Notes under the pieces: generated by a model
Seen by the model: the letters and a program-made list of their open reading frames with translations, nothing else
Databases searched by the model: none
What the model was told of the DNA's origin: nothing
Program-made: the position numbers and the translations under genes
From: an uncultured Thermoplasmata archaeon
GTDB lineage: Archaea; Thermoplasmatota; Thermoplasmata; UBA10834
Direction: 5' to 3'
Assembly: GCA_963719945.1 (NCBI GenBank)
Contig: CAVRDX010000003.1
Coordinates: 64,001-128,000, forward strand
DNA: 64,000 nt
Shown here: piece after piece, positions 2,320-10,507 of the stretch
Layout of the letters: each line of letters begins with the position of its first letter
Numbering within the stretch: position 1 is the stretch's first letter

Positions 2320-3513
2320 TCAGAGCATGATGATATCTGATATTCCATTCTCCACCACCACCTTCACGCTCGTACCGAGTCTCTCGATCACGAGCCCATT
2401 CACACTGTCTGACACGAATATCTTGCCCGTTGCGTCCACCCCCCATACCGAATCGCTGAGTCCATCATCTATTGTGCCTCTCATCGTTCCGTTCTCATAG
2501 AAGACGAGTATCTCGTCGCTGTTGTTCGCTACGAACAAGTTCCTTTCGTCGAGAGCGTAGGCACTAGCGGATATGTCCGTTGTCGATGAGAGCATGTTCG
2601 ACCCGATTATCTGAGCTCCTTCACTTCCGTCGAGTCCGTATCTGTCCATATGGTTGCTTCCGGAGCTGTTGTCAAGGACGAATATGTATCCGCCTACGGA
2701 GATGTCTATCGGGCCAGTCATCGTGCCTCCGTTGGCGATTAGTTGATCGACGAAGACGCCAGTCGATTTGTTGAATCTGTCAATATGGTCGAAGTTGTCG
2801 ATAACGTAGATGTAATCCGAATCGACTGCAAATGATGTCGGTGATGGCGCGTTCGTTCCATCCGAGATGAACACATCTATCCAGTTTCCGTCTGTGTCGA
2901 ATCTGTCAATGTGTGAAGCTTCATCTAGAACGTATAGATACTCACCGAATACCTTGACATCACTGGGCGCCACCATATGTGTGGCGTCTGTGATTGTGAA
3001 ACTGAATGTGCCAGTTAGTGTGAAAACCTCAATGCTGTTTCCGTCGAGGACATATGCGCATTCGCCCACCGATAGACTGGTCGGCGAGGAAAGTCGGGCA
3101 TCGTTCGCAACGAGGTTCCTTAGACCTACGTCAGGATCGAAATCAATCGATGGGTCGTTGACGGTGATTGTGAGTACCTCTAGTGGCAGCCAGATATCTG
3201 TCGTCTTGCCTTCGATCGCTGTGGTGAATGATGACAAGAACAGGCCGTCGATGAGGAGATTCGATTCGCTTATCTCAAGAGCGATGCTTCCAGTATTCTG
3301 TACAAGGACCTCGAGCTCATTCGTGTCGCGATAGTAATTCACGTCGATTATGCTGATCTGAGTCTGCGATCTTTCACTCATATCATCGTATCTTTCGTCC
3401 AGAGATACGGTTACTTTATCAAACGCATCGGTTACCGAGGCGTAAAGAATAGAAAAAAGAACGAGAAAGGCGGCGAAGAAAATCGCCATTGTAGCCGAGA
3501 CACTAAACCCCAT
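2320..3513 (-). CDS. arlF: Archaellum stator protein ArlF/FlaF with an inserted NHL-like beta-propeller
   Basis: MGFSVS...TM N-terminus, VQNTGS, LIDG, WLPLE and C-terminal VKVVVENG strand match ArlF. About 240 aa of six ~40-aa repeats interrupt it. Confidence 0.85.
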   Translation of the reverse strand: MGFSVSATMAIFFAAFLVLFSILYASVTDAFDKVTVSLDERYDDMSERSQTQISIIDVNYYRDTNELEVLVQNTGSIALEISESNLLIDGLFLSSFTTAIEGKTTDIWLPLEVLTITVNDPSIDFDPDVGLRNLVANDARLSSPTSLSVGECAYVLDGNSIEVFTLTGTFSFTITDATHMVAPSDVKVFGEYLYVLDEASHIDRFDTDGNWIDVFISDGTNAPSPTSFAVDSDYIYVIDNFDHIDRFNKSTGVFVDQLIANGGTMTGPIDISVGGYIFVLDNSSGSNHMDRYGLDGSEGAQIIGSNMLSSTTDISASAYALDERNLFVANNSDEILVFYENGTMRGTIDDGLSDSVWGVDATGKIFVSDSVNGLVIERLGTSVKVVVENGISDIIML

Positions 3514-4687
3514 GAAAGCCCTCCAGACTCTCCTTGAACTTCGATATATTCTGTTCGAGGGAGTTTAGCCTATCCTTGTCGACTTCGAGCCCTGCGATCT
3601 TCTGGACGAACAGGAGAGACTTCAGATGGTCGTCGGCTGACAGGCGCCAGTCTTCGACCTTCTTGTAGGGTGCGGCTTGTGGCGGGGGTAGATCCCTGAA
3701 GACATCCTCACGGACCTCTTCTTGGCCCATGTATTTCGTGATGTCTTGCATCTCACCGCGTGCGTAGGACATGATTTCTGATTTCACATCCTCGCTGATC
3801 CATCCTACGTCAACATAGTAGTCAAGGACGAGCGATATCTTGTCTCTCGTAACGCGCTCGAACAGGAATTCTATCCAGCGCATGACAAGGACGAGTGTGA
3901 GGTAATCGTGTGGTATGTATGCGAGCAACGGTTTCTTATTGTGCTTGCTCCTCGCTGCCGCACGTACCTGTCTCTCATATCTCTCGTCGGTCGATGTCTT
4001 ATCCATCGTCGGTGGAGTCTCTCTCCTTTCTCCAATAGATACAGTCCCCAAGGGCATTGTCGACGTCCCTGGCTCCCACGGGGTGGCGTCCCTACTTTTC
4101 TTTGATGCCGCGCTCCTAGCTGAAGATGGCGTTTCGATCTCTCCTTCGCCAAACGGTCTGAACTCTGGGATATCTCCGTCGAGTTCGATCGTTCCGAACG
4201 AGATCTCGTCAGCTGGTTTCTCCATCTGCTTCTCCGCCGGTTTGGGAGGAGACTGTTCCTTCGGAGGAGCTTCTTTCTCTGACATATCAATGAACGGGTT
4301 GAACTTCGCGGAGACGACTTCGTATACTGACAGGAGCTTTCTGATGTCCTGGTCCATCTGGGTGAGTTTGTCTCGGACCTTCGAGTTCTCGTTCCGCTCA
4401 TTCGTCAGAGCGGAGTCGATTCTCCCGATCTTGTCTTCGATCTCTTCCAGGCGACCAAGGAGCTCGCTGAGCTCCTTCACACCAGTAAGTCCTCCGGCAC
4501 CCGAACTATCGTCTTCGAGGTAGTCCTCCTCGTCTGTGGGCGACACTATTTCTGATCCGTCGCCCCCTTCTGCTGCGTCATCGAAAGTCTCCTCTTCCGT
4601 ATCATCGAACTCGTCCTCGAAGTCTTTCAACTTCCTACGAGCTGAGGAACCATCTTTTCCAGGTTTCTTGCGGAACAGGCCGGCCAT
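3503..4687 (-). CDS. Archaellum switch-complex protein, ArlC fused to ArlD/E
   Basis: Coiled coil ending LLSVYEVVSAKFNPF (ArlC-like) plus C-terminal WIEFL...YYVDVGWIS...LSADDHLKSLLF (ArlD/E-like). An alternative start is at 4726. Confidence 0.88.
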   Translation of the reverse strand: MAGLFRKKPGKDGSSARRKLKDFEDEFDDTEEETFDDAAEGGDGSEIVSPTDEEDYLEDDSSGAGGLTGVKELSELLGRLEEIEDKIGRIDSALTNERNENSKVRDKLTQMDQDIRKLLSVYEVVSAKFNPFIDMSEKEAPPKEQSPPKPAEKQMEKPADEISFGTIELDGDIPEFRPFGEGEIETPSSARSAASKKSRDATPWEPGTSTMPLGTVSIGERRETPPTMDKTSTDERYERQVRAAARSKHNKKPLLAYIPHDYLTLVLVMRWIEFLFERVTRDKISLVLDYYVDVGWISEDVKSEIMSYARGEMQDITKYMGQEEVREDVFRDLPPPQAAPYKKVEDWRLSADDHLKSLLFVQKIAGLEVDKDRLNSLEQNISKFKESLEGFHGV

Positions 4688-4729
4688 TTTCGATACACCT
4701 AACCCCGTGCAGTCATGGGAAAACATCTT

Positions 4730-4757
4730 CCCTCACCTCTTAGAAAAGAGGTGAGGG
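4730..4757 (-). terminator. Perfect 12-bp stem hairpin between archaellin and arlCDE (terminator, attenuator or mRNA stabiliser)
   Basis: CCCTCACCTCTT-AGAA-AAGAGGTGAGGG, 44 nt after the archaellin stop. Confidence 0.6.
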
Positions 4758-4800
4758 GGAGAAATCTCCCCAAATTGGGATTGATTGAGCTAGTGTCTCT

Positions 4801-5421
4801 CTACTTGAGCACCACTACGCTGCTAGCCTCGAGGGTCGCAGGAGCGGTTATCTCCAGGTATGTCGGCACACCGTGCTTGGGCATCAACAGGAGCGTCAGC
4901 TGTTCTTGTGGGTCGAGCTCCATTGTTATTCCCGTCGCGGTGGTGAGGTCGATTTGTACCTGGAATACATCTCCGGCGGTCATCATGACTGCAGCTGTTG
5001 CTGGGTCCATGTCTCTGAGCTCAGTTGCGGTGAACTCTGTGGCGGATGCTGCAGCTGCGTATGAGAGCGTGATTTCAGACGCTACTCCTCCGCCGATGGT
5101 CTGCGTAACCTCAATTATCGTGTTCTCGAGGTTGATCCCAGGGCTACCAGCGATCAAGGCTATCTTGATGTAGATCGTGTCGATGGCTGGAGTCGCATCT
5201 GTCGATCCCCATACGGCAAGGACCTTGAATCCACAGGCAACGTCCTGCAGAGCCTCGTCACCAGTCGACTCGGCCTGCTGTTGCAGCTTGTATGCAGTCT
5301 GGACCAAGACACCCGCTGCCACAGCGGCAACGATTATCATGGCAATGAAGATAAGAAGGGTTCCAACACCCATCTCGCCTTCCTCTTCCATTTTTCTCTT
5401 TTTCCACGCTAGTTTGTTCAT
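4801..5421 (-). CDS. arlB: Archaellin (ArlB/FlaB), copy 1
   Basis: Class III signal peptide plus GVGTLLIFIAMIIVAAVAAGVLVQTA, AGSPGINL and C-terminal PKHG motif; GGAGG RBS. Confidence 0.96.
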   Translation of the reverse strand: MNKLAWKKRKMEEEGEMGVGTLLIFIAMIIVAAVAAGVLVQTAYKLQQQAESTGDEALQDVACGFKVLAVWGSTDATPAIDTIYIKIALIAGSPGINLENTIIEVTQTIGGGVASEITLSYAAAASATEFTATELRDMDPATAAVMMTAGDVFQVQIDLTTATGITMELDPQEQLTLLLMPKHGVPTYLEITAPATLEASSVVVLK

Positions 5422-5754
5422 TGTTTCTATTCCTCCAACTTCGCATCTCTTCTCGAGTCACGTACCCGAGGGACGTTCGGCACCCTGCCGACGAGGAGAT
5501 CTTCCGAGCCGATCCTAGCTCTCCTGCCTATTGACAGGACATCGAGAGCATCCGCTACCCGATGGTTTGTCCAAAAAGCACGGTTTTTCAACGCCCGCCG
5601 TGAATCTTGTCTAGCACTGGGGCGATTACACAACTCCTGGCGACAGCCAGACCGTTCCATCCTAACTGGTCTTCTCGCCTCACCTCCGATGGCAACCGCC
5701 GCCGTGCCCTGCAGCGGGGAGTGAGAGAGATGCACCCCTCAAGGTTGTGCTTGA

Positions 5755-5782
5755 GAGGCACTATCCACAGGGCATGTAGACC
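5755..5782. repeat. 28-bp repeat copy A (reverse complement of copy B)
   Basis: + strand GAGGCACTATCCACAGGGCATGTAGACC is the exact reverse complement of 7752-7779. Confidence 0.95.
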
Positions 5783-5803
5783 TCTCTCGAGTCTACTATC
5801 CAG

Positions 5804-5865
5804 AATATATATCTTAAACATTAGTATACAAATGTCTAGAAAAATTATGAGAAGTGATTCTCATA
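5804..5865 (-). promoter_or_regulatory. Putative promoter of the arlB1-arlCDE-F-G-H-I operon with a palindromic operator
   Basis: Minus strand TTTAAGATATATATT (5818-5804) is TATA-like; palindrome TATGAGAA-GTGA-TTCTCATA at 5846-5865. Confidence 0.6.
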
Positions 5866-5890
5866 GGTGATTTGCGCATTCGTCAAATCA

Positions 5891-7612
5891 TCAGACGAGA
5901 TTCACATATCTGTAAGCCCCAAGATATGGGATTGTACAGTCCTCTATCGTAGGCTGGCCTATGCTCGGAATGAATTTCATCGAGAACGATGATTCGGCGT
6001 GAAGGTTCAGTCCTATCTCGCCGGCGTCGACGAATATTTTCACGAGTCCTCCATCCGAGAGAGAGAATGTGCTTGCGAATTCGCTATCTGGATCCCTAAG
6101 TATCTGGACAGAGAAGCTGTCAGCAGTCGCCCCGGCTGGCCCGAATTCTGCAGCATTGAATGCCAGCGTGACATCCTTCTCCCCGTCAGTGATCTCTATC
6201 ATCAGAGACGTGAACAGGATCGGCATGCTTCCAGGCACTGTCTTGACCTTGATCTCGATCATCTGGATGGTGTTCGATGGTATCACTGGTTGTGCATAGT
6301 TGTCTGCCGCATCCACAGCTACTACGGTATAGTAGTACAGGGTTCCAGACACTCCTGAGTAATCACAGTACTGGGTCGTGTTGCTGCTGACCGATGCGAT
6401 GGGGGTGGAGTTCCTCAACTCCTCGACGCTATCGAGCGCGGACATGCTGGTACTCCTGTAGATTAGGTATTCACCGATGTACGTCTCACTATCGGACGCT
6501 TCGTTCCAGTTCATCTCGACAGATTGTATATATTGCGTAGCACCAAATGCCTGCACTGCGGACGGAGCGATGGAATCCACGACTTCAGCATTGTATGTGA
6601 GCGTTCCCAATGAAACCTGGTTCCCCGCTCGGTCTTCGACTATTACATAATACGTATAGGTCCCCTCATCACTAGGGGCGTCAGAATAGCTAGACGCAGT
6701 GGAATTAAGTGCCGCAATGAGCTCCGCTCCGATCGATATGGAGATGACCCTTCGTCCATCGACCATCTCGCTAGATAGCGACCCAACCGATACGGTGCTC
6801 CTATAGAGCAGCTGCTGGTCGACGCCACTGCCCGCATCGGTGGCTGGAACCCAGAAGAGCATGACAGAATACTCATCAGGTCTCGATGTGCTCGTCATGG
6901 ATCCACCTGCGGGTATGGTCTGATCCTCATCATGACTTGCTGCATCCGTGGATGCAGAACTGTCAATCGGAGTATAGAGGGCACGGTTTCCAGCTGCGTC
7001 CACTCCGACTATTGCATACGCATATGACGTGGAATTATCGTCCCTGGCGGTATAATCCATATACTGTCTATCTGACCCGAAGCCAGTTGTCAACGTTGCC
7101 AATTCATAGGATGGATTGAGTTGATCGAGTGTCAATAATCGATTCCTTGCGATCTGTTCGTTGAACGCGGCAGGATTGGTCGGGTCATATACCGAGGTCC
7201 TGTAGATGATCTCCTCAGCCAACCCAGAGCCATAATCAATGGCGGAGGTCCAGTTCAGAACTATTCGGAGTGGTGCAACTCCGTCGTTTGAAGCAGTTGC
7301 GTTCCATAATATGCCACCAGTCGGCGGTTGATCATCTCTCGATGGCATATACCCGGAAGCGATTGAAGAATCTGCACCGTCAGGGTTCCTGTCGCCTGCG
7401 ACATTGACGACGGTAAGTCCTCCAGAGACCTCTGAAACGGCATCGTCGACAGTTCTCTGTGCCTGTTGCTGCAGCAACGCTGCAGCATAAAGTATCAATG
7501 ACGCTGCGATTGCAGCGACCAGCACCATCGCAATGAAAATGATAAGTGTACCTATACCGACATCGGCTTCTTCATCCGTCTTGATGCTCGTTCTTGCTTT
7601 TTTGAGCCCCAT
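5891..7612 (-). CDS. Large archaellin (573 aa) with three inserted fibronectin type III-like domains
   Basis: N-terminal VGIGTLIIFIAMVLVAAIAA. Three repeats of pattern W-x-x-A-x-D...YR...Y-x-Y-x(4)-D-x-A-x-N follow, then the archaellin core resumes at IEIKVKTVPGS. Confidence 0.88.
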   Translation of the reverse strand: MGLKKARTSIKTDEEADVGIGTLIIFIAMVLVAAIAASLILYAAALLQQQAQRTVDDAVSEVSGGLTVVNVAGDRNPDGADSSIASGYMPSRDDQPPTGGILWNATASNDGVAPLRIVLNWTSAIDYGSGLAEEIIYRTSVYDPTNPAAFNEQIARNRLLTLDQLNPSYELATLTTGFGSDRQYMDYTARDDNSTSYAYAIVGVDAAGNRALYTPIDSSASTDAASHDEDQTIPAGGSMTSTSRPDEYSVMLFWVPATDAGSGVDQQLLYRSTVSVGSLSSEMVDGRRVISISIGAELIAALNSTASSYSDAPSDEGTYTYYVIVEDRAGNQVSLGTLTYNAEVVDSIAPSAVQAFGATQYIQSVEMNWNEASDSETYIGEYLIYRSTSMSALDSVEELRNSTPIASVSSNTTQYCDYSGVSGTLYYYTVVAVDAADNYAQPVIPSNTIQMIEIKVKTVPGSMPILFTSLMIEITDGEKDVTLAFNAAEFGPAGATADSFSVQILRDPDSEFASTFSLSDGGLVKIFVDAGEIGLNLHAESSFSMKFIPSIGQPTIEDCTIPYLGAYRYVNLV

Positions 7613-7751
7613 CCCAGTCCTCTCCGGTGTGCGAGGGCATGGAACGTAGCGTTGTTGAGCCTAGAGCATCCGCTAACTCATGGCACCATCAGAAATTATC
7701 CCGACTTGTTGAGCCGGTAATATATTACTCGTCAGAAAGACGAGAGTCTAC

Positions 7752-7779
7752 GGTCTACATGCCCTGTGGATAGTGCCTC
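7752..7779. repeat. 28-bp repeat copy B
   Basis: GGTCTACATGCCCTGTGGATAGTGCCTC, inverted relative to 5755-5782. Confidence 0.95.
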
Positions 7780-7797
7780 GAGATGCGTTGGAGGCTA

Positions 7798-7849
7798 GTG
7801 ATTATCATGCGTTTGAAGATTATATAAGACAACAAGCCGTGATTTTCAT
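7798..7849 (-). promoter_or_regulatory. Putative promoter of the large archaellin
   Basis: TTATATAA at 7820-7827 is flanked by GTGATTATCAT (7798-7808) and GTGATTTTCAT (7839-7849). Confidence 0.55.
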
Positions 7850-7978
7850 GCAAGATAATCAGATTATTTGAATCAAAAATATCAATTGTAAGGGGTTTCT
7901 TTGGGATATTCCCAGACGCTGATATGCCCTGTTTGTCAGTCTCTCTCAATTCTCGTTGTTCGGATCAACCATCGCCGG

Positions 7979-8461
7979 TCATACTCTGTAATAATCGGCA
8001 AGGCTGGTCTCGAATCGACCGATCCGTTCCTGCACTTCACACCAGATGTTCTTGTCAACATCGATGCCCGCCAGCTCCATGACGAACATCCAGGACTTCA
8101 TATGGTCTTCCGGTGTGAGCCTCCACTCCTTCTCCTCCGTCGCAAGCGCGAGGGCATCCAAGGAGCTTTTCCTTCCGGGCCGTTTCTTGGTCACTACGAG
8201 ATTGTGGTCTATGATCTCATCGTCCAGGATCGCCTCTGCCATCTCCGGTTCGGCTTTCTTTGTGCCTTGAGATACAGATGCCAAGTACTCTGCGATGTCC
8301 TCTCCTATCCATCCTATTCTGCTATAGAAGCTGAACAATCTGGGAATGGCTTCGATGTCTATCCTGTCCATCAGGAACGACATCCATCGCATGATGATCA
8401 TGTTGGTTCTGGAATCTATGTCGAAACTCTCCAGTGCCGAGTACCGTTCTTCTGGATCCAT
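7979..8461 (-). CDS. Stand-alone ArlD/E (FlaD/FlaE) domain protein
   Basis: MRWMSFL...FYSRIGWIG...WRLTPEDHMKSWMF parallels the C-terminal domain of 3503-4687. Confidence 0.85.
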   Translation of the reverse strand: MDPEERYSALESFDIDSRTNMIIMRWMSFLMDRIDIEAIPRLFSFYSRIGWIGEDIAEYLASVSQGTKKAEPEMAEAILDDEIIDHNLVVTKKRPGRKSSLDALALATEEKEWRLTPEDHMKSWMFVMELAGIDVDKNIWCEVQERIGRFETSLADYYRV

Positions 8462-8490
8462 GCACGTTCCTCCTTTCTTGAGATCCCTCT

Positions 8491-9135
8491 TCAGGTCAGT
8501 ATCTCATATGTGTTCGACAGGACCGAAGGTGTGGTGATTAGCACATAGGTCGGTATCCCGTGCTTCGGTATCAGGAGTATCGTAGCGTCCTGCTGGGTGA
8601 CGAGGCTCATGTCCGTAGGCAGTTGTTCAGCCAGGTCGATGTGCAACAGCGCAACATCTCCCTGAGTGATTCCCACATCTGCTGCGGTCCATGCAGCGAT
8701 ATTCAAGGGATATGTGTCCCTCAGACTCGCCACATCGAAAGTGCCATCCGTGGATGCGACAGTGTAGTCTGGACATGATAGCGTCTCATCTGCCTCTCCA
8801 TTTGATATCTCGATTATCAATGTGGCCAGGTTGATCACCGGGCTGCCCGCTGTCAGCGCCACCTTCAGGTACACATCAGTGATGACCAATGCACCCGTGC
8901 CATCATCCGCCGTCATTCCATATATCGCCAACACTTTCAGACCCGTTGCTACTTCCTGCAATGCCTGGTCGCCTGTCGCTTCTGCCTGTTGCTGTAGTTC
9001 GTATGCGGTTTGGACTAGGACGCCAGCTGCTACGGCGGCGACTAATATCATCGCTATGAAGATCAACAACGTGCCGACCCCCATCTCCCCTTCCTCACCC
9101 ATACGAATCCTTCTGGGCTTGGGTATCTTTTCCAT
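8491..9135 (-). CDS. arlB: Archaellin (ArlB/FlaB), copy 3
   Basis: GVGTLLIFIAMILVAAVAAGVLVQTA, AGSPVINL and PKHG motifs; GAGGAGG RBS. Confidence 0.96.
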   Translation of the reverse strand: MEKIPKPRRIRMGEEGEMGVGTLLIFIAMILVAAVAAGVLVQTAYELQQQAEATGDQALQEVATGLKVLAIYGMTADDGTGALVITDVYLKVALTAGSPVINLATLIIEISNGEADETLSCPDYTVASTDGTFDVASLRDTYPLNIAAWTAADVGITQGDVALLHIDLAEQLPTDMSLVTQQDATILLIPKHGIPTYVLITTPSVLSNTYEILT

Positions 9136-9303
9136 CTCTTTCCCTCCTCTGTGGTCGCGGAGAGGTCAGTCATCCAAAATCCAGACTGCATGAGTTGAGA
9201 ATGTCGTGTGCGGCGTGGAGCGCCCACTCTCAATTCTCAATCATCACCAGAATCATGGTGCCTGGCCTATCCGCGTAGTGTGATTCTCTTTCACTCCCGA
9301 GGT

Positions 9304-9331
9304 AGGTCTACAATTGCCCTGTGGATAGTCC
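9304..9331. repeat. Degenerate repeat copy C (2-nt insertion)
   Basis: AGGTCTACA-AT-TGCCCTGTGGATAGT-CC, same orientation as copy B. Confidence 0.85.
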
Positions 9332-9509
9332 AAGCGTCTTTTCTCTCGAGTGCGTTAGTGCCGCCTCTGAGAGCTATATCTGATTCTCATGTATGATAAA
9401 AATGGTTGTGTCGTGATTCTCTTTTTAGAAAATGACAAAATCAGTCCGAAAAGAATAGAACGTGAAATGGAGGGGAGTTAAAAGGCCCCCTTAATTTAGG
9501 AAAGGTTAT

Positions 9510-9836
9510 TCAGAGCTCGCCTCTTGGTTTCGGCGTAGCCATGTTCTGAACTATCTCCAGCGGTGCGGATCTGTAGTTCATATCCACTTTCATGTGCAGC
9601 GTGCCTCTCTCGTAGACAAGGGTGACGCTGCCTATTCGGGACTTGTATACCTTGTATCTTTTCCCATCCGCCGTTAACTCGCTGCCTTCCTGTTCGATCA
9701 GACCTGCCGCGGACAGCTCTCGAAGTTTTCGATAGCAGCTCGCAAGCGGTATGTCGAACATGAACGCGAGTTCTCTTGCGCTCCTAGCTTTATGGCTAGA
9801 CGCTGCAAGGATGTTCATGTTGTATTGGTCCGTCAA
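9510..9836 (-). CDS. Winged-HTH (ArsR-like) transcription regulator; true start probably upstream
   Basis: SARELAFMFDIPLASCYRKLRELSAAGLI HTH; paralogous to 10139-10507. Confidence 0.85.
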   Translation of the reverse strand: MTDQYNMNILAASSHKARSARELAFMFDIPLASCYRKLRELSAAGLIEQEGSELTADGKRYKVYKSRIGSVTLVYERGTLHMKVDMNYRSAPLEIVQNMATPKPRGEL

Positions 9837-10138
9837 TATCTGAGCGATGCCGAGCTTAGCATGCGCTATATCTGTATCGGTGGCCGTTTTATCCCCTCAC
9901 ACCAGGGGGGAGTTAGAGCTATATCCCGTCCCTTATCCTGGGGAAACTAATTCTAGGATATATATAATTGTCTTTTTGTTTCTAAACCATGAGAATCATT
10001 CGTACTCCTCAGATCGTAGATCTGTCGTTCGATTCTAGAGCATCCAAGTGAGGGGACCACTATTGATGATCATGCTCGACTTATCGTCGGTGATATTCTC
10101 TGATTGGAATTGAATGAGATTGTTTATGAACAGTTATC

Positions 10139-10507
10139 ATGAATGTAATGCAGGAGGCTCCCCCTTCGATGAATGCCTACGAACTGTCGAAACTCTTGAT
10201 CGACGAGTATTCCGCGAAGATACTCACGTATGCCAGAGACAAACCTCGATCAGTTCAGGACATGTGCCAGAGGCTCGACATACCCGTGACGCTCGGATAT
10301 CGGAGGGTCAACACACTTCTTAACGAAGGCCTCCTGAGTTGTGAGGGGAGATCCCTAACTCAGAGGGGCAAGTGGACCAAGCTGTATGTTTCTCAGGTCC
10401 GACGAGCCCAGATCTTCTTCGATGATGGTAAGGTGCGTCTGAAGTTCGAGTTCAAGACGGGTCAGGTTCGATGGTCGGATGATTGGGAAGCTGCCCCGGC
10501 CGTATGA
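10139..10507 (+). CDS. Winged-HTH (ArsR-like) transcription regulator, divergent paralog
   Basis: SVQDMCQRLDIPVTLGYRRVNTLLNEGLL HTH; the start may be the internal MNAYE. Confidence 0.85.
   Translation: MNVMQEAPPSMNAYELSKLLIDEYSAKILTYARDKPRSVQDMCQRLDIPVTLGYRRVNTLLNEGLLSCEGRSLTQRGKWTKLYVSQVRRAQIFFDDGKVRLKFEFKTGQVRWSDDWEAAPAV

Follow-up and report, generated by a model that had tools for sequence, protein, structure and literature searches.

Complementary leader motifs and possible RNA pairing among archaellin messages in uncultured Thermoplasmata

What is a 28-nucleotide sequence that recurs, in both orientations, in front of three archaellin genes of one archaeon: a binding site in DNA, a site of recombination, or a working part of the messages themselves? 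We considered this question for a 64-kb stretch of DNA from an uncultured member of the Thermoplasmata (the window, which is the whole stretch of 64,000 nucleotides analysed here) and for the corresponding locus in its relatives. The original prediction was that the element acts as RNA, with the leader of the arlB1 message pairing in trans with the leaders of the two other archaellin messages and possibly serving as a strand-displacement switch on them.

Three copies of a motif at an archaellin locus

The locus belongs to an assembly of 1.78 Mb that is 87% complete. It includes the gene for an ArsR-like winged-helix (wHTH) regulator, HTH1 (9510-9836, minus strand), and its divergent paralogue HTH2 (10139-10507, plus strand). 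These are followed on the minus strand by arlB3, which encodes a 214-aa archaellin (8491-9135; PF01917, E = 1e-25), an ArlD/E-like gene (7979-8461), arlB2, which encodes a giant archaellin of 573 aa (5891-7612), arlB1, with an archaellin of 206 aa (4801-5421), and arlC/D/E (3503-4726). A Pfam scan of the eight locus ORFs recovered archaellins, ArlC/D/E-like proteins, and wHTH proteins, the rest having no confident family match, and a search of Rfam across 4700-10200 on both strands gave no match at E <= 1. The large ArlB2 protein carries an Ig-like insert between its N-terminal helix and its C-terminal core (weak Big_13 and CbhB-like matches), and this insert is kept in every three-copy genome. 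An ORF of 102 codons within leader A (5427-5735) was considered as a coding gene and rejected, the open frame being shifted among close relatives.

Copies A (5755-5782, minus strand) and B (7752-7779, plus strand) form a perfect inverted repeat that agrees at 28 of 28 positions, where the chance expectation is 0 matches. Copy A has the sense orientation and sits at the extreme 5' end of the arlB1 leader; copy B is placed such that the arlB2 leader, on the minus strand, would bear its complement. Copy C (9305-9331) likewise has the motif sense on the plus strand, its complement falling in the arlB3 leader (minus strand), and B and C are direct repeats. Copy C consists of GGTCTACA (9305-9312), AT (9313-9314), the core TGCCCTGTGGATAGT (9315-9329), and CC (9330-9331). 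It has in common with B the exact 15-mer TGCCCTGTGGATAGT and the 8-mer GGTCTACA, which in C are split by the extra AT, and the two copies differ at the 3' end (CC-AAG in C versus GCCTC in B). The original description of copy C, as identical to B apart from the AT insertion and the 3' end, agrees with our check of the sequence, and its boundaries of 9304-9331 are correct to within one base. The motif also has partial dyad symmetry, TCTACA-N5-TGTGGA.

The 15-mer TGCCCTGTGGATAGT occurs at three sites only in the 1.78-Mb assembly. We set aside as probable chance matches a single site with one mismatch on contig 1, which sits in a 496-aa ORF, and two weaker matches in the window (37018 and 37197), which lie inside a 240-aa ORF. 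A fourth, degenerate copy of the antisense type is present at 7924-7932, with TCTCTCTC at 7940-7947 (in the gene sense, GAGAGAG..ACAGGGCA). It sits between the stop codon of the ArlD/E-like gene and the arlB2 promoter, and its 8-mer ACAGGGCA is kept in relatives; it could be another target for the UGCCC loop described below, located in the 3' UTR of arlB3-arlD/E, or a protein half-site.

With at most one mismatch allowed, the 15-mer was found in 18 of 61 related genomes, most of them with three copies inside ~3.6 kb in the same minus, plus, plus pattern. HTH1 was recovered from 19 of the 49 genomes of the order, including every three-copy genome, and the remaining genomes of the order appear to be without the locus; a metagenome scan with the HTH1 alignment supplied 45 further contigs. 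The three copies, their order, and their orientation are kept in ~30 related genomes and contigs, in which tblastn gave one gene order (HTH2, HTH1, C, arlB3, arlD/E, B, arlB2, A, arlB1, arlC/D/E) with all orientations constant. Across these relatives the 15-nt core is identical while the neighboring proteins diverge to ~65% identity in ArlB2, 40 to 50% in the ArlD/E-like protein, and 60 to 70% in ArlB3.

This constancy bears on the possibility that the copies are recombination sites for phase or antigenic variation, at which recombination between A and B would flip an arlB2 cassette and recombination between B and C would remove arlB3 together with the ArlD/E-like gene. The geometry is suitable, with A and B being perfect 28-bp inverted repeats around a surface-filament gene and B and C being direct repeats, but no inverted A-B segment was seen in the ~30 assemblies and contigs, where gene order and orientation are identical, and we rejected an inversion switch given the same synteny and orientation everywhere examined. 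Inversion would moreover part arlB1 and arlB2 from their conserved promoters, the eight locus ORFs scanned against Pfam gave no match to a recombinase family, and copy C has indels inside what would be the recombination core. The sense copy, in addition, folds as a covarying RNA hairpin and exists as a single copy too. We regard recombination at these repeats as highly improbable.

Single copies occur in five lineages (L077, L078, L093, L089, and L105), where HTH1 is followed by an A-type leader and arlC/D/E and no antisense copy is present on the contig. These lineages keep the fold of the leader, and their sequence differs at 1 to 6 of 16 core positions. In all five the A-type leader stands directly before arlC/D/E on contigs without an archaellin gene, which suggests that the 5' domain predates the three-copy arrangement and was probably in origin a part of the accessory-gene operon. 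G038, a member of another family with an HTH1 that is 75% identical, is at least as distant as the single-copy lineages and has CTGCATGCCCTGTGGA in all three copies. Two genomes of genus g5 (G037 and G039; 86 to 88% complete) yielded no archaellin gene by protein query or by PF01917; both have HTH1 and arlC/D/E, and the loop of their 5' hairpin is very different. A further 2.5-kb contig (G001:C140, L050) carries an extra HTH1 and a C-type copy whose GGTCTGCA variant is that of another genus, and is probably derived from a second strain in the bin.

Predicted transcripts, the arlB1 hairpin, and internal partners

Alignments of the three intergenic regions share a common layout, in which a TGATT..AATCA-type box (TGARAATCA) and a TATA-like box are followed by ~22 variable bases, after which conservation is seen again. 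The TATA-like boxes are themselves conserved and lie on the minus strand at 5811-5818 for arlB1 (TTTAAGAT), 7820-7827 for arlB2 (TTATATAA), and 9396-9403 for arlB3 (TTTTTATC; TTTTcTATC in the alignment of relatives). Transcription starts were predicted from the usual archaeal TATA-to-start spacing of ~26 nt, which places them near 5788, 7796, and 9374, respectively, and conservation returns abruptly at these predicted starts (cGAGAGAGG in A, aGCCTCC in B, and GCTCTCAG in C). Relative to them, the motif is offset in leaders A, B, and C by ~+8, ~+22, and ~+45, respectively. All three copies lie below conserved TATA boxes, and given the predicted starts, copy A would be transcribed as sense and copies B and C as antisense. 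The strand assignment of the original prediction is borne out to this extent, by the boxes upstream of all three copies and by the onset of conservation at the predicted starts.

Independent transcription of B and C in the motif sense was also considered and was rejected, the AT-rich TAATATATTA beside B not being conserved in relatives. Further along leader A, GAAAAACCGUGCUUUUUGG (5571-5593, minus strand) forms an A-tract/U-tract hairpin with a moderately conserved run of U4-5 about 200 nt past the predicted arlB1 start. Transcription could terminate prematurely at this hairpin and so release a 5'-UTR-derived RNA with the motif.

Nineteen distinct A-type 5' domains were aligned and then folded with RNAalifold, which identified a three-way junction with covariation at the 5' end of the arlB1 leader (5712-5789, minus strand). 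In helix P1, GAGAGAG is paired with CUCUCUC; P2 is the motif itself, a hairpin UCUACA-UGCCC-UGUGGA with the loop UGCCC; and P3 pairs CCUCUCAAG with CUUGAGGGG and has five covarying pairs. Over the domain, 97.5% of the cells assigned to pairs can pair, compared with 37 to 67% with slid partners. The covariation score is 0.217, versus 0.148 for shuffled alignments (reached by 0 of 500 shuffles), and 6 pairs have changed on both sides, versus 2.7 when shuffled (reached by 1 of 500). Departures within P2 are G-U pairs, five of its seven pairs having GU or UG cells, and these would be C-A mismatches on the opposite strand; compensated P2 pairs are found in L089 (GUCCAC...GUGGAC) and L105. The prediction that the element works at the level of RNA is in keeping with these results, since the sense copy is a covarying hairpin and its G-U pairs are present on the sense strand only. 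Folding of all 15 full leaders gave the UGCCC loop an unpaired probability of ~0.9, and a covariance model of the 5' domain, searched against 151 genomes of the class, found matches only in its own order.

Part of the motif was also predicted to have an internal partner in each of the three leaders, a claim that holds for leader B and for which comparative support is wanting in leaders A and C. In leader B, the Shine-Dalgarno sequence has the mimic CATGCCCT/CAUGCCCU (7624-7631, minus strand) immediately upstream. This mimic, a predicted pairing partner of the antisense copy, is conserved, being either invariant in relatives or altered by G-U changes only. A second mimic, GATGGTGCC/GAUGGUGCC (of GAUAGUGCC; 7683-7691, minus strand), is also real and conserved, and in the form GAU(A/G)GUGCC seen across relatives it is able to pair with the antisense copy's 5' half. 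With RNAalifold on 15 B leaders, GUC..CAUGCCCU was the partner chosen for the antisense copy's 3' half (AGGGCAUG..GAC), and GGAUG, at the start codon, was paired with CAUCU, which lies near the 5' end. Where pairs in these helices vary, most do so by G-U only, and single non-standard cells are seen at two pairs. When the B antisense copy was blocked in single-sequence folding of at most 4 of 13 genomes, there was no consistent change in Shine-Dalgarno accessibility. The partner proposed for leader A, CAGGGCA, is conserved only within the window's own genus. That proposed for leader C, GCGGATAGGCCA/GCGGAUAGGCCA (9253-9264, minus strand), is real and weakly supported: GCGGAUAGGCCA pairs at 10 of 12 positions in two genera and at 6 to 8 of 12, uncompensated, in g4, and RNAalifold on leader C did not choose this partner and found no covariation for it.

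The original prediction called for cofolding of the leaders, and the predicted duplexes proved stronger than those of shuffled sequences. Nucleotides 1 to 60 of leader A gave -74.6 kcal/mol with B and -66.1 kcal/mol with C, versus -39 +/- 4 kcal/mol for shuffled A. The gain on cofolding was 30.6 kcal/mol for A:B and 26.6 kcal/mol for A:C when nucleotides 1 to 130 of A were used. Against leader pairing stands the cost of opening both structured leaders, which is about 25 to 31 kcal/mol for each partner.

Change among the copies and what could maintain them

Maintenance of complementarity in related genomes was the comparative check named in the original prediction, and we found that it is retained through matched changes in L034, G038, L096, L086, and L087. 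In L034 and G038, an A-to-G change (GGTCTGCA) is present in all three copies, and a G-to-A change at the base before TCT is shared by the A and B copies of G038 and by the sense and antisense copies of L096. L086 and L087 have a C-type leader before the ArlD/E-like gene and an A-type leader before arlC/D/E. The sense copy of L087 contains CGTGCTCTGTGGA (10166-10178), the exact complement of which is found at 9454-9466; that of L086 contains CATGCTCTGTGGAAGG, the reverse complement of the antisense copy reads CATGATCTGTGGAAGGG, and GGAAGG is present in both. Complementarity in L086 and L087 was read directly from the sequence, RNAduplex having given long-loop solutions there. These matched changes across lineages indicate that the copies track one another and not a fixed consensus. 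Complementarity among A, B, and C reaches 35 to 40 nt and includes CGAGAG at the predicted 5' end.

Several features of the leaders are recorded here in their own right. L087 has two tandem antisense copies in one leader (9454-9466 and a weaker one at 9476-9491), which lies upstream of an ArlD/E-like gene without an archaellin in front. The tract CAUCUCUCUCACUCCCC in leader A of the window (5718-5735) complements GGGAGUGA(A/G)AGAG at 9283-9299, just 3' of copy C. In g4 an A-to-G change in the leader A tract stands opposite a U in C as a G-U pair, and the leader C tract also pairs with that leader's own 5' GCUCUC.

One-sided differences between A and B or C are mostly transitions, and by our own count ~10 of 11 are G-U compatible on the predicted transcripts; cases include g4 B position 9, L039, L041, G038 B, g3 B position 34, L096 (twice), the C copies of g4, and L087. 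Such events are few, and their bias toward wobble pairs could in part reflect strand-biased mutation (transcription-linked C-to-T and A-to-G changes on the non-template strand) or the internal helices of leader B, which weighs against leader pairing. Matched change, too, would be expected not only from RNA pairing; gene conversion would produce it, and so would a co-evolving protein that binds DNA.

Gene conversion forms part of an explanation without any trans function, in which the element serves each leader's own fold and the copies go back to an old inverted duplication and owe their uniformity to conversion from time to time. Conversion would give the matched changes, the sense hairpin is conserved in lineages that have no antisense partner, and leader B has internal partners for its own antisense copy. 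However, the A:B match of 28 of 28 far exceeds that of B to its own split mimics of 8 to 9 nt, and identity tracts of 28 to 40 nt that lie 2 kb apart are poor substrates for gene conversion. On the antisense strand P2 would carry C-A mismatches at the commonest sense G-U and U-G pairs, which argues that the fold itself is not what preserves B and C, and the A-to-G change of L034 further weakens the antisense hairpin, yet it is fixed in all copies. The sequence, moreover, is frozen only where partners exist. A role confined to the fold of each leader is, in our judgment, quite unlikely.

A co-evolving protein would correspond to an operator in double-stranded DNA, the 15- to 17-bp core being bound by HTH2 or an unlinked protein that represses the three archaellin promoters and for which orientation is irrelevant. 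Archaeal repressors typically bind just after the TATA box or the start site, and the motif occupies such a position. Two wHTH genes always stand beside the locus, and for a DNA site, one sequence occurring in both orientations is to be expected. The partial dyad symmetry of TCTACA-N5-TGTGGA is likewise operator-like and thus counts against leader pairing, but the departures from symmetry are of the G-U type on the sense strand. Fifteen contiguous invariant bases, none of them degenerate, are also unusual for a transcription factor site; the distance to the predicted start varies among the three leaders, the left half-site of C is either shifted by 2 bp or degenerate, and complementarity runs beyond the core to 35 to 40 nt.

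A different box, TGAGAATCA, is found at every promoter and in the regulators' own intergenic region, and this too argues against the motif as an operator. The box at 9381-9389 (minus strand) is a likely wHTH operator distinct from the motif, and other TGAGAATCA/TGARAATCA copies lie at 5855-5863, 7840-7848, and 9990-9998. The 64-kb window has four TGARAATCA sites: each of the three archaellin TATA boxes has one upstream of it, and the fourth falls between HTH1 and HTH2. Distant lineages keep the box as well. HTH1 and HTH2 have weak matches to HTH_20, TrmB, and Sta1, and their relatives are lineage specific. Residues 14 to 41 of HTH1, its HTH region, are invariant in all lineages, even where the motif has changed at 6 of 16 core positions, as it has in the course of drift in single-copy lineages. 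This invariance despite motif drift, together with TGAGAATCA at every promoter, indicates that the adjacent regulator likely has a site other than the motif. HTH1 is, as judged from these comparisons, better matched to the TGARAATCA box than to the 28-mer, and the TGARAATCA boxes are likely the operator set of HTH1 and HTH2. We consider it unlikely that the motif is itself an operator.

The extra AT of copy C had been central to the original argument, on the grounds that altered spacing is poorly tolerated by recombinases or dimeric repressors and amounts to a mere bulge in an RNA duplex. The weight placed on it is not justified. In the ArlB2 tree the +2 insertion is limited to the window's clade (WIN, G010, and G006; support 100/100), within which the inserted letters differ (AT in the window, TT in G010 and G006), and most relatives have a copy C without it. 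A separate net +2 change affects the same junction in L042, of genus g4, and an A-to-T change there has three origins (the L036/L080, L076, and L041/L071 clades), which makes five independent changes in all; the same junction showed no change in copies A and B of the relatives compared. In g4 the left arm of copy C is largely degenerate (gatcccgca, aaccctaca, and aattccgca). From this comparison, the insertion is young and not conserved, and the constrained part of copy C is its 15- to 17-nt core. Since the insertion is absent from most relatives and the left arm has decayed in g4, any binder of copy C would need only that core, and altered spacing excludes a protein only if the binder requires both arms. 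In RNA, the junction changes correspond to a bulge or mismatch in the duplex and to a loop of the antisense hairpin that goes from 5 to 7 nt. As we read it, the AT insertion is a bulge at a changeable junction, tolerated and not a conserved design feature. The decay of the left arm of C in g4, and an internal partner in C without covariation, are points against leader pairing.

Leader pairing and its relation to known systems

Pairing between the leaders of the arlB1, arlB2, and arlB3 messages is the best reading of this locus in our view, and we give it a somewhat better than even chance of being correct. Because the organisms are uncultured, the claim rests on comparative evidence; we infer that the leaders are transcribed as predicted and meet in the cell, and likewise the direction and sign of the effect. 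The motif would be an RNA element, the first hairpin of the structured arlB1 5' leader, presenting an exposed UGCCC on the stem UCUACA/UGUGGA within the three-way junction, and the leaders of arlB2 and arlB3, as separate transcripts, would bear its complement in what looks like an inverted duplication of the arlB1 5' domain. The 5' end of arlB1 would base-pair in trans with both, through 28 or more contiguous pairs in A:B and through the 15-nt core plus an 8-nt arm over a 2-nt bulge in A:C, and pairing would probably begin as a loop contact between UGCCC and GGGCA. In leader B, where the antisense copy is also predicted to pair with the CAUGCCCU mimic by the ribosome-binding site, the CAUGCCCU helix would be displaced on pairing with arlB1, which would alter the translation or stability of arlB2. 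The outcome would be a coupled output of the three filament proteins.

A broader proposal, which we advance tentatively and hold to be doubtful as it stands, is that the three archaellin messages form a sense/antisense network in which the 5' hairpin of the main leader kisses the hairpins of the inverted copies and sets the subunit ratio after transcription. Such a network may have evolved by duplication of a leader domain, with the bulge or mismatch at the C junction tuning the pairing. Co-evolving leader complementarity would represent a concrete, testable post-transcriptional mechanism for archaellin proportions, and the locus would show, in nature, how inverted duplication of a leader domain can make a regulatory RNA target. 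To our knowledge, what has been learned of archaellum gene regulation concerns transcription almost exclusively (EarA, the Arn network, and CsmR), and we know of no description of such mRNA-mRNA control for archaella or for any archaeal surface structure.

An archaeal comparison is with the EarA boxes, which read TACATA in Methanococcus and A(C/G)(C/G)TACA(T/C), lying upstream of the BRE by nine nucleotides, in Thermococcales (PMC10665913, PMC5512572). Both are short repeated elements at archaellin promoters, the left arm of the motif holds CTACAT, and copy B has a tandem GTCTAC-GGTCTACA. The EarA boxes are upstream of the BRE/TATA, whereas the motif lies downstream of conserved TATA boxes, and its conserved part is the 15-mer to the right of TACA. 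Family and relative searches detected no relationship between HTH1 and EarA, HTH1 matching HTH_20 and TrmB weakly.

Where flagellin phase variation depends on Hin/hix inversion, and FljA blocks fliC mRNA, inverted repeats likewise lie by filament-protein genes and a choice is made among filament subunits. Unlike that system, the locus described here shows no inversion in ~30 assemblies and no recombinase among the ORFs scanned, and its repeats are in predicted transcribed leaders.

Leaders that act in trans are familiar from bacteria. In Listeria the SreA riboswitch acts on prfA. Base-pairing RNAs derived from 5' UTRs include RhlS, from the rhlI 5' UTR (PMC6786874), and further 5'-UTR-derived RNAs of E. 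coli (PMC7815308). As in those cases, the leader of one message here complements that of another, and the predicted target is near the ribosome-binding region. The present case differs in being archaeal, in involving paralogous structural genes of one organelle, and in being a prediction from sequence, and its perfect complementarity of 15 to 28 or more nucleotides is much longer than typical seeds.

A further resemblance is to antisense control by kissing hairpins, as in CopA/CopT of plasmid R1, RNA I/RNA II of ColE1, and RNA-IN/RNA-OUT of IS10. Complementary hairpins with G+C-rich loops (here UGCCC and GGGCA), an mRNA 5' end as one partner, and long perfect pairing after a possible loop contact are common to those systems and to the archaellin leaders. 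Their pairs are encoded in cis, one partner on either strand of a single locus, whereas the putative partners here lie 2 to 3.5 kb apart, are co-directional, and derive from an inverted duplication.
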